Positions 13,531 to 15,751 of a DNA stretch of 64,000 bases are shown here, in pieces. This DNA is from Giardia intestinalis (taxonomy: Eukaryota). The position numbers were made by a program, and so were the translations under genes. The notes under the pieces are model-generated. The model saw only the letters and a list, made by a program, of their open reading frames with translations. It was not told the origin of the DNA and searched no databases. Position 1 is the stretch's first letter. Each line of letters begins with the position of its first letter. The stretch lies in NCBI GenBank assembly GCA_000002435.2, contig CM018789.1. One strand, 5' to 3'.

Positions 13531-14511
13531 ATGGCTTTTCAATTTGGGAACAATGCTGCTTCTAGCAGTGGAGCCACGGGGACTACGACGACCACACAGG
13601 CGCCGTTCACCTTTGGAACGTTTGGGCAACAGGGAGCAGCCACGGCTTCTGCTCCAGGAGGACTAAACAACACGCCAACTCCGGCACCTGCCGTCTCAGC
13701 ATTTCCCACTGTAGGAGCTACGGCTGCTGCAGGGTTCGGCACTAGCGGATTCACATTTGGAAAACCCGCGGCATCAGCAGCCACGACGACCCCTGCAGCA
13801 ACCCCTGCAACCGGGGCATCAACCTTTGCTTCTGCCAATGCTCCTACCTTTGGTGGGTTTAAGGCCGCCAACAATGCAACGACTACCGCATCTGGCTTTA
13901 ATTTTGGAGGGGCTTTGCCGTCTGCTTTTTCCAAGCCTTCAGATAACGCCGCACAAGCGGGCGCGCAACTGAACACACAGAACCTTCAGAAGCAAATGGA
14001 GAACATAACTCCGGATGATACCCTACAGAAGTGTCCACAGGATTTCCAAAAGCTGGTGCTGCGAATAGATTCCGAGCAGGAGAAGGCTAAGAAAGCTCTC
14101 CAGACGCTCGAATCAACAATCGCAAAGAATAAGAATGAGTATCTAACTATCTGCGAACGAATGACGGCGCTGAACCACCGGCTATATGAACTAGAGTCGT
14201 GTCAGACGGCACTAGAGACTGAGGCAACATCACTAACGAGCCACTTGACCGCCCAGCGGGAGCTAGCATACAAGCTATCCACGAATGACCCCGACGCTCG
14301 GGAGCTTGCAGCCAACTATTGGGACTACAAGTTTTCATCCCTCCAAGAGAAGCATCAGCGCCTCCAGTCACAGCTACTCTGTCTAGCCACCGCACTGGGG
14401 GTCCCAGTTAGCTCCCGGATACCCTGCCAGACTATGGATGAGCTATATGGGCTCCTGGAATCCCTCTATCAACAGGCACGGATATACCAGATCAAATTAG
14501 GCATCGAGTAG
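13531..14511 (+). CDS. FG-repeat nucleoporin-like protein (Nup62/Nsp1- or Nup54/58-type: FG N-terminus plus coiled-coil C-terminus)
   Basis: ATG at 13531 is preceded by caaaaaagagc. The N-terminal ~140 aa is a low-complexity G/A/T/S-rich region with repeated FG motifs: FQFG, FTFGTFGQQG, GFGTSGFTFG, FGGF, FNFGG. The C-terminal ~180 aa is predicted coiled-coil (LQTLESTIAKNKNEYLTICERMTALNHRLYELE...). Confidence 0.6.
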   Translation: MAFQFGNNAASSSGATGTTTTTQAPFTFGTFGQQGAATASAPGGLNNTPTPAPAVSAFPTVGATAAAGFGTSGFTFGKPAASAATTTPAATPATGASTFASANAPTFGGFKAANNATTTASGFNFGGALPSAFSKPSDNAAQAGAQLNTQNLQKQMENITPDDTLQKCPQDFQKLVLRIDSEQEKAKKALQTLESTIAKNKNEYLTICERMTALNHRLYELESCQTALETEATSLTSHLTAQRELAYKLSTNDPDARELAANYWDYKFSSLQEKHQRLQSQLLCLATALGVPVSSRIPCQTMDELYGLLESLYQQARIYQIKLGIE

Positions 14512-14536
14512 TAAATCCAAAAATCTAGCCTCCTCC

Positions 14537-15751
14537 ATGAGCGAGAATTTAGGGACGGACCACAATGACTATGGTACAACCTCAACACTTAATGCTGTTG
14601 ATGTTCATATTGCCCTGACCGCTATCGAGGACGCTGTGAATAAGCTTGCCCTCCTTGACGACCTTGCACCAGACTTAGCCACACATAGAGACGAGCTCAC
14701 TCTCTATGTCGGTACGGAGATCTCTCGCATTATCACAAAGCAGCGGGCGCTAGAGGATCAACTGATTAAGGTTATAGATAATAGGAACGCCCTTCTGCAA
14801 AACAACAGCACTCGTGCCGTTATACAGGCATCAAACGCCGAAGTCACGGAAATAAGCAAAGCGATTAAGGCTGCAACAAGCGAGCTCTGCAGAAACCTCA
14901 GAGAAAACCCGTCTGTCTCTGAAAACTTGAGGAAAACCCAGGCACATCGCTCTTATGTCCACAAGCTATTAACGACAGCTTATGCTGAGCTGAAGCAAAA
15001 GCACAGCTATACTGATCTTGATCGCACCGTTTCAGAAGCGCATATGGTTCTCATAGAGGAGAAGAGGCTAGAGGAACGAGCACAAAAGGCCAAGAATGCA
15101 GTCCGCGAGCTCCAAGAAGAAATAGATAAAACTCGCTCTGAGCATCAGAAGACGTTGACGGAGCAGCAAGAGCATCTTAAAGAACTGCGAGAGGAATTGG
15201 TTACCCAACGCACTCGGATTACTGACACGGTCCGTCTCTACCAACGAGAATTGGTGGCTGCTAACAATGAAGCTGATCGACTGCGCACCGGCGAACTCCG
15301 CAAAGGCCAAAACCTTCTCAACGACATAGCCGCTGTGCTGCAGCAGGAGGAGGCTTCTCATGAGATTCTTCACCAGATTCTCCAAGATGATGGGCAACAG
15401 ATGACAAAGGCTGCCGGGGACTGGCTCCTTAAATCGGAAGAGGTTATAGGAAGACTAGAGGGCGAAATTGCACACTTAGAGCAAGTAAAGAAGCAGAACA
15501 GCGAGAAGATCTTCGAGATGGAGCGCCAGGATGAGGAAAACATGGAGGAAAAGAAGCGGTGGGAAGAGGAGGAGGCGTTTAAACAGCGTATGCACGAAAC
15601 CCTCTTTGACGCCAGAAACATGCGCTTAGAAGTTACACGGAAGTATTTACAAGACACGTGGCGATTGGCTCTAGACCCGCCGGACCCCGAAAAGAAGAAG
15701 AAAAAGGGGAGCAAGGGGAAAAAAGGTAGTAAAGGAAAGAAGGGAAAGTAG
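14537..15751 (+). CDS. Coiled-coil protein with Lys/Gly-rich C-terminal tail
   Basis: ATG verified at 14537, 25 bp after the FG-Nup stop. Almost entirely heptad-like E/K/Q/L-rich sequence. It ends KKKKKGSKGKKGSKGKKGK. Confidence 0.55.
   Translation: MSENLGTDHNDYGTTSTLNAVDVHIALTAIEDAVNKLALLDDLAPDLATHRDELTLYVGTEISRIITKQRALEDQLIKVIDNRNALLQNNSTRAVIQASNAEVTEISKAIKAATSELCRNLRENPSVSENLRKTQAHRSYVHKLLTTAYAELKQKHSYTDLDRTVSEAHMVLIEEKRLEERAQKAKNAVRELQEEIDKTRSEHQKTLTEQQEHLKELREELVTQRTRITDTVRLYQRELVAANNEADRLRTGELRKGQNLLNDIAAVLQQEEASHEILHQILQDDGQQMTKAAGDWLLKSEEVIGRLEGEIAHLEQVKKQNSEKIFEMERQDEENMEEKKRWEEEEAFKQRMHETLFDARNMRLEVTRKYLQDTWRLALDPPDPEKKKKKGSKGKKGSKGKKGK

Follow-up and report, generated by a model that had tools for sequence, protein, structure and literature searches.

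Two adjacent genes in a 64,000-nucleotide stretch of Giardia intestinalis DNA (assembly GCA_000002435.2, contig CM018789.1; this whole stretch is hereafter called the window) raise the question of whether this organism keeps a nucleoporin of the central transport channel and, if so, whether the gene next to it encodes a partner. An earlier reading of the letters, here called the sequence-only reading, had proposed that both belong to one nuclear-pore module, gene 1 as a phenylalanine-glycine (FG) repeat nucleoporin with the Nup62/Nsp1/Nup54/Nup58 layout and gene 2 as its coiled-coil partner. We conclude, with a probability of roughly 0.6, that gene 1 encodes a highly divergent central-channel FG-nucleoporin, most like Nup58/Nup49, and that gene 2 is independent of it. 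Both open reading frames (ORFs) were recovered from the ORF listing where the sequence-only reading had placed them, gene 1 at 13531..14511 (+) with 326 amino acids (aa) and gene 2 at 14537..15751 (+) with 404 aa. The gene 1 protein showed 100% identity to the database entry 'Hypothetical protein DHA2_16678 [Giardia duodenalis]', and it has so far been without annotation beyond hypothetical protein in the databases searched. The features of gene 1 are as follows.

13531..14511 (+): gene 1, candidate Nup58/Nup49-type channel nucleoporin, from the ORF, the identical database entry and the profile-profile match to Nup58/49

13531..13965 (+): FG domain, aa 1-145, disordered, charge-poor and Ala/Thr/Gly-rich, with FxFG/GFG/FGGF motifs

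14011..14277 (+): predicted helix 1, aa 161-249 (89 residues), coiled-coil segment 1, with a predicted local distance difference test (pLDDT) score of 80-94 in its first half

14020..14070 (+): motif TLQKCPQDFQKLVLRID, aa 164-180, at the start of helix 1, from the HHalign alignment

14290..14397 (+): predicted helix 2, aa 254-289, coiled-coil segment 2, from AlphaFold2 and HHalign

14434..14499 (+): predicted helix 3, aa 302-323, coiled-coil segment 3, lying almost at the C-terminus, as in fungal Nup49

The N-terminal part of gene 1 has the character of an FG domain. Every FG motif named in the sequence-only reading was found at the positions checked, namely FQFG (aa 3-6), FTFG (26-29), GFGTSGFTFG (68-77), FGGF (107-110) and FNFGG (123-127). 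Within residues 1-145, Ala accounts for 25%, Thr for 17%, Gly for 14% and Phe for 10%; only four residues carry a charge, and there are seven FG dipeptides when 2.0 are expected from composition (p = 0.0007, shuffling). AlphaFold2, run on gene 1 with a four-sequence Giardia alignment, returned residues 1-148 as disordered (pLDDT about 30) and without secondary structure. Among four Giardia lineages, 13 of the 15 Phe residues of the domain were invariant, whereas for the remaining residues the figure was 55 of 130, or 42% (Fisher p = 0.0017). Such conserved Phe within drifting spacers is the pattern expected of an FG-nucleoporin in sequence comparisons, and with a disordered, charge-poor and FG-enriched domain, gene 1 has sequence attributes by which these proteins are recognized. 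An antisense ORF of 145 aa (13539..13976, minus strand), rich in Ala, Gly, Val and Pro, lies wholly within the coding region of this domain. We dismissed it as a gene, since its existence is most likely a side effect of GC-rich codons for Ala, Thr and Gly in the opposite, coding strand.

Few relatives of gene 1 were found. A phmmer search against 1.84 billion representative proteins gave two matches, of which only one (P0005) was a further relative. A profile search with the gene 1 family added P0006, and the full ORF behind it is located at 4470..5531 of L002 (353 aa). No bridging sequences beyond these Giardia-clade relatives came from the exhaustive phmmer and profile searches. The L002 ORF is the only distant relative found, with 36% identity to gene 1 in the C-terminal region. 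Its N-terminus could not be aligned with the FG domain of gene 1, yet it keeps FG and GF motifs (5 FG and 4 GF, including IFGGF, GTFGFS, PFGTN and PFGNTFG) and has five charged residues in 177; the coiled-coil region comes after it, as in gene 1. The FG plus coiled-coil layout is thus conserved at the distance of L002.

Directly behind the FG domain, gene 1 encodes an ordered C-terminal part of about 175 residues. AlphaFold2 predicted helices at aa 149-157, 161-249, 254-289 and 302-323, with pLDDT reaching 94 in the first of the long helices, and three of these helices, of 89, 36 and 22 residues, would form the coiled-coil segments. The C-terminal region was 83% invariant in the four Giardia lineages (71-100% identity). 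Channel nucleoporins in general are described as having an ordered region of about 150-200 residues, divided into segments of about 40-80 residues (PMC4513098).

The match of this region to Nup58/Nup49 extends over its full layout. In the HHalign alignment, helix 1 was aligned with segment 1 of Nup58/49, and its start, TLQKCPQDFQKLVLRID, with the family signature T[KR][FW]x[DE]LPPxhQxxLxxI[DE] (in shorter form TKFxDLPPxxQxxLxxID), for which plant TKWADLHPDSQKLLLQIEE and yeast TRISELPPQIRQEIEQLD are examples. Within this segment start, plants have QKLLLQIEE and Giardia has QKLVLRIDS. The start of helix 2, 'NYWDYKFSSLQEK' (NYWDYKF..LQE), fell on the segment-2 motif 'P.DYF.....FE', both in HHalign and in the hmmsearch alignment of the L002 ORF, so that NYW... 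in gene 1 stands against DYF... in the family. The break STNDPD ahead of helix 2 aligned with the first Nup58/49 linker, 'TP...', and a Pro-containing loop aligned with the second; both helix breaks are on family linkers. Gene 1 therefore shares with Nup58/Nup49 an FG domain behind which, with nothing in between, come three helical segments set apart by two short breaks, and like fungal Nup49, the protein ends just after segment 3. It also differs from the family in several respects. Identity is only about 11% and no curated family model was passed, segment 3 is short (22 residues) and the conserved LP of the signature is CP in gene 1. Unlike the GLFG type of fungal Nup49, its FG motifs are of the FxFG/GFG type, and unlike vertebrate Nup58, it has no second FG region past the coiled coil.

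The assignment to this family is carried by profile comparisons. Reference profiles were rebuilt from the supplementary alignments of Neumann et al. 2010 (PMC2951903) and then realigned. We used a Nup62 C-terminal domain profile (28 species), a Nup58/Nup49 coiled-coil profile (23 species; PMC2951903 supplement 54) and a Nup54 profile (26 species) restricted to the linker and the first coiled-coil segment. The latter is partial because the homologue search, seeded with the Nup54 alpha/beta domain, gave only exon-sized fragments of <190 aa. The ClustalW alignment in the supplement had set segment 1 of fungal Nup49 against metazoan segments 2-3, which was corrected with MAFFT. When the Giardia family was compared with the Nup58/49 profile, HHalign gave a probability of 73% (P = 3.1e-5, score 37.0); the alignment is collinear over 156 columns and pairs query 18-174 with target 4-172. 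Of 800 decoys made by shuffling columns so as to keep the coiled-coil periodicity, none reached 37.0 (mean 14-15, standard deviation 2.8, highest 26). Among the controls, the reversed profile scored 24.1, Nup62 22.8 and the partial Nup54 22.5, while real coiled-coil ORFs from the window scored at most 28.6, in short local alignments. With the Nup58/49 hidden Markov model (HMM), the C-terminal region of the L002 ORF obtained 19.1 bits in a collinear match (HMM positions 16-164), a value reached by none of 15,000 shuffles, and the window protein itself obtained 10.6 bits (p = 0.004 with heptad shuffles, 0.028 with heptad-block shuffles). The profile similarity to Nup58/49 is of moderate strength. 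A Nup58/49-type reading of gene 1, rather than Nup62, is moderately supported by these alignments and not proven. Of the sequence-only reading, the FG-nucleoporin layout has stood and can be narrowed to Nup58/49-like (73% with HHalign, 0/800 decoys), while Nup62, also among the names it gave, is not the best fit.

The channel heterotrimer is made of Nup62, Nup58 and Nup54, and its fungal counterpart of Nsp1, Nup49 and Nup57. A stoichiometry of 1:1:1 is stated for the Nup62-Nup58-Nup54 complex (PMC4004597). For Giardia, the broad survey of Neumann et al. 2010 listed a Nup54 candidate and no Nup62 or Nup58 (PMC2951903). This candidate (gi 159117887; PMC2951903 supplement 53) is a protein different from gene 1. 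It carries the Nup54 motif W..A....PD....PV..GF..L..R, and a 45-aa fragment of it, EKLWLEARRCCPDCTRYSPVLVYGFEQLAARAAAHTTTLQEIKKD, scored 29.3 bits on the partial Nup54 HMM. Hence, by motif and profile score, Giardia has a real Nup54/57 homologue, distinct from gene 1. No mention of the gene id GL50803_16678 or of a Giardia Nup58 was found in the literature searched, where only Neumann et al. 2010 was relevant.

Several observations weigh against gene 1 as a Nup58/49-type nucleoporin. In standard searches it is not recognized as one. When gene 1, its C-terminal region alone and the orthologous proteins were scanned against Pfam and NCBIfam, the only matches were to generic coiled-coil families below threshold (DUF724, HAP1_N, SMC and others), and the Nsp1_C and Nup54 models had no match to gene 1 or its orthologues at E up to 10. 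By the criterion set in the sequence-only reading, similarity to Nsp1_C or Nup54/58, this standard route would give a negative. Nucleoporin_FG2 (PF15967) matched only the P0004 orthologue (E = 0.22, 10.4 bits when the cut-off is 32.3) and gave no match on the window protein, so that no curated Nup58/49 model recognizes it. Among PDB sequences, neither the protein by itself nor the profile of its family matched a nucleoporin at E up to 10, and the family profile retrieved only coiled coils of the tropomyosin, GCN4 and Mnd1 types; in a fold search, gene 1 was not recognized. The profile evidence has its own weak points. The reference sequences were transcribed by hand from the 2010 supplement. 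The Nup58 signal needs both Giardia clades, as the G. duodenalis clade alone scored 26.7 and the L002 clade alone 31.9, and it is carried mainly by the fungi (36.2 for fungal Nup49, 29.6 for plants plus protists and 16.0 for metazoa alone). A reciprocal HMM of the low-diversity Giardia family did not separate single Nup58 (8.2 bits) from Nup62 (7.6 bits) sequences. In HHalign, a comparison of the genuine Nup58 profile with that of Nup62 gives a score of 33, and the Nup62 HMM gives Cryptococcus Nup58 18.3 bits. Because such cross-family scores among true channel nucleoporins are similar in size, the subfamily assignment of gene 1 is less secure than its assignment to the channel class. Finally, FG enrichment in the L002 ORF is weak, with five dipeptides when 2.4 are expected (p = 0.07).

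Part of this evidence also favours the rival that survives best, in which gene 1 would encode a lineage-specific protein of low-complexity sequence and coiled coil, for instance cytoskeletal, basal-body or vesicle-associated, and its likeness to FG domains and to Nup58 would be convergent or due to chance. Its homologues are confined to Giardia-like organisms, searches with curated models and of folds give only generic coiled coils, and the distant relative shows the weak FG enrichment just described. In addition, the window protein alone obtains no more than 8-10.6 bits with the Nup58 HMM, and an unrelated ORF of 923 aa does about equally well. However, coincidence would have to explain a profile-profile score far beyond that of decoys that preserve the coiled coil (z about 8), as well as a collinear alignment to Nup58/49 over the full length, in which the two linkers are also in register. 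The selective conservation of the FG Phe residues also argues against this view, as does the order of a charge-poor FG domain and a three-segment coiled coil, which matches a channel nucleoporin exactly. Moreover, the Giardia Nup54 homologue needs partners. We therefore regard a non-nucleoporin as a real but clearly less probable explanation, at about one chance in a few.

The FG motifs of gene 1 could instead suggest the Giardia orthologue of Nup62/Nsp1, the member of the channel trimer with FxFG-type repeats. FxFG motifs with Thr/Ala-rich spacers, as found in gene 1 (FQFG, FTFG and FNFG), resemble the N-terminus of vertebrate Nup62. Like Nup62/Nsp1 (Nsp1_C, PF05064), gene 1 also has a C-terminal coiled coil of similar length in three segments, its helices of 89, 36 and 22 residues being near in length to the segments seen in the Nup62 family alignment, and the proposed overall role in the channel trimer would be the same. 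By eye, a local motif [LV][ED]xxhxxNxxxh resembles WDxxLxENxxxI of Nup62. Furthermore, the Nup62 slot is as open as the Nup58 slot, neither protein having been found in Giardia by Neumann et al. (PMC2951903). Nevertheless, unlike Nup62/Nsp1, gene 1 lacks the conserved W...F...WD motif and any Nsp1_C similarity. The check for Nsp1_C proposed with the sequence-only reading gave no Pfam match at E up to 10, and the Nup62 profile stayed at decoy level. Indeed, the 28-species Nup62 HMM gave the gene 1 family 5.6-6.9 bits, within the range of heptad shuffles (p = 0.02-0.15), and reversed sequences scored as high or higher (16.1). In HHalign, the probability for Nup62 was 6%, with a score of 22.8 compared with 37.0 for Nup58/49. 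As both the custom HMM and HHalign were at decoy level, we rejected Nup62 as the identity of gene 1 and consider this orthology unlikely, distinctly more so than a protein unrelated to the pore.

Nup54/Nup57 was also tried as the identity of gene 1 and rejected. Gene 1 has in common with it an FG domain, coiled-coil segments and the proposed membership in the same heterotrimer. Unlike Nup54/Nup57, it lacks the W..A..NPDP..PV..GF..L..R motif, and neither the alpha/beta domain nor the NPDP...PV..GF motif was found in gene 1, where about 20 residues from the last FG to the first helix leave no room for such a domain. The score of 22.5 with the partial Nup54 profile, over 36 columns, is background.

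The answer for gene 2 is of a different kind. The features concerned are the following.

14512..14536: intergenic spacer between gene 1 and gene 2, 25 bp in the sequence, an ordinary Giardia gene spacing

14537..15751 (+): gene 2, DRC9/IQCG/FAP122 orthologue of 404 aa, from phmmer against PDB sequences

15689..15748 (+): Lys/Gly-rich C-terminal tail EKKKKKGSKGKKGSKGKKGK, which aligns with the Tetrahymena DRC9 tail KKKRKKGKKKKK

Gene 2 had no Pfam match. In a search of PDB sequences, phmmer aligned it with Chlamydomonas DRC9 (8glv_En, E = 2.8e-25, query 28-393 to 35-398 of 406) and with Tetrahymena DRC9 (8th8_J, E = 3.9e-14, query 18-396 to 1-372 of 372). These homologies identify gene 2 as dynein regulatory complex subunit 9, a component of the axonemal nexin-dynein regulatory complex, or N-DRC for short, and thus as a flagellar protein and not a nucleoporin; its earlier casting as the coiled-coil partner in a Nup62 complex was wrong. 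The poly-Lys/Gly tail pointed out in the sequence-only reading is present (EKKKKKGSKGKKGSKGKKGK). Like the DRC9 proteins in the Chlamydomonas and Tetrahymena axoneme structures, gene 2 is collinear over its full length and has a basic Lys/Gly C-terminal tail, so that neither its all-coiled-coil body nor this tail is unusual for a DRC9. According to the N-DRC model from Tetrahymena, DRC9 pairs with DRC10 in the linker as a coiled-coil heterodimer whose positively charged loops point towards the adjacent doublet, and calmodulin binding and axonemal localisation are reported for DRC9 (PMC10504270). The basic tail of gene 2 would face the neighbouring doublet microtubule. Where Chlamydomonas DRC9 has IQAWWRGHKV, the Giardia protein has YLQDTWRLAL (window 15650-15690, aa ~372-385), so that the IQ motif, which binds calmodulin, may have degenerated in Giardia DRC9. 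To annotate gene 2 as DRC9 is a routine matter, yet it corrects an appealing misreading. A convergent ORF of 593 aa (15759-17540, minus strand) has its end a mere 7 bp away from the stop codon of DRC9.

That genes 1 and 2 form a functional pair, co-regulated or interacting as a 'Nup62-complex module', is highly improbable, for it has only the shared strand and the 25-bp distance in its favour, whereas gene 2 is DRC9 by a full-length match to a solved axonemal protein, 25 bp is the median intergenic gap of the window, the L002 orthologue of gene 1 adjoins genes other than DRC9, and in Giardia each gene has its own transcription from a short AT-rich promoter, such a stretch preceding each of the two genes here. 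The co-located nuclear-pore module is thereby refuted on three counts: its partner is DRC9, its gap is the median and its adjacency is absent in the distant relative. In that relative, whose gene context is known from L002 and the shorter L001 only, SRR1, Arf and tubulin genes lie upstream of the gene 1 orthologue, and a 152-154-aa ORF with a weak match to HTH_Tnp_1 (transposase helix-turn-helix) lies downstream, in the place that DRC9 holds in the window (L002 5555-6019, minus strand; L001 476-934, minus strand).

Gene spacing accounts for the arrangement. Between successive ORFs of at least 200 aa (window span 2853-56313), the median gap was 25 bp, and 14 of the 26 gaps were of 25 bp or less. 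Packing is extreme across the window, with several gaps of 1-14 bp and overlap in five ORF pairs. Genes 1 and 2 are adjacent because Giardia genes are tightly packed, and adjacency in this genome says nothing about function. This case shows that it should not be read as functional linkage.

The two genes are flanked by an ORF of 543 aa (11840-13471, plus strand) and by the 593-aa ORF already mentioned. Neither flanking protein had a Pfam match at E up to 1, except for a sub-threshold Fzo_mitofusin coiled-coil match on the 593-aa protein. A tubulin-family ORF (21928-23370, minus strand; PF00091, E = 8e-36) is located about 7.4 kb from gene 1 in the window, and a tubulin gene of about equal length (468 aa) occupies L002 1560-2966, about 1.5 kb upstream of the gene 1 orthologue. 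A tubulin gene near gene 1 in both places suggests loose, rearranged synteny.

If gene 1 is the Nup58/49-type nucleoporin that we propose, its C-terminal region of about 175 residues would form three coiled-coil segments, each running parallel to and zipped up with its counterparts in two partner nucleoporins, namely the Nup54 homologue of Giardia and a Nup62/Nsp1 yet to be found. This coiled coil would fix the protein at the pore's inner ring, and the FG domain of 145 residues would project into the transport channel and line it, where the conserved Phe-Gly motifs may help to form the permeability barrier and bind transport receptors. Localisation of gene 1 to the nuclear pore, formation of the heterotrimer and a function in the barrier are things that we infer only by analogy with known channel nucleoporins. 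Whether Giardia, whose nuclear pore is reduced and hard to detect, keeps the canonical three-protein channel complex, with gene 1 (GL50803/DHA2_16678) as the Nup58/Nup49 subunit reported undetected by comparative genomics, is to us an evenly balanced matter.

If confirmed, gene 1 would add a very divergent new member to a known family, which would help the study of the diplomonad nuclear pore without being conceptually surprising. The composition of that pore is poorly defined, and gene 1 as a credible candidate would offer experimenters a small, easily tagged entry point to the pore of Giardia. Together with the Nup54 candidate, it would, if the assignment is true, provide two handles for purifying the first diplomonad nuclear pore complex and for finding Nup62/Nsp1. 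A true Nup58/49 in Giardia would also support a channel heterotrimer that dates to the last eukaryotic common ancestor and survives in a reduced parasite.

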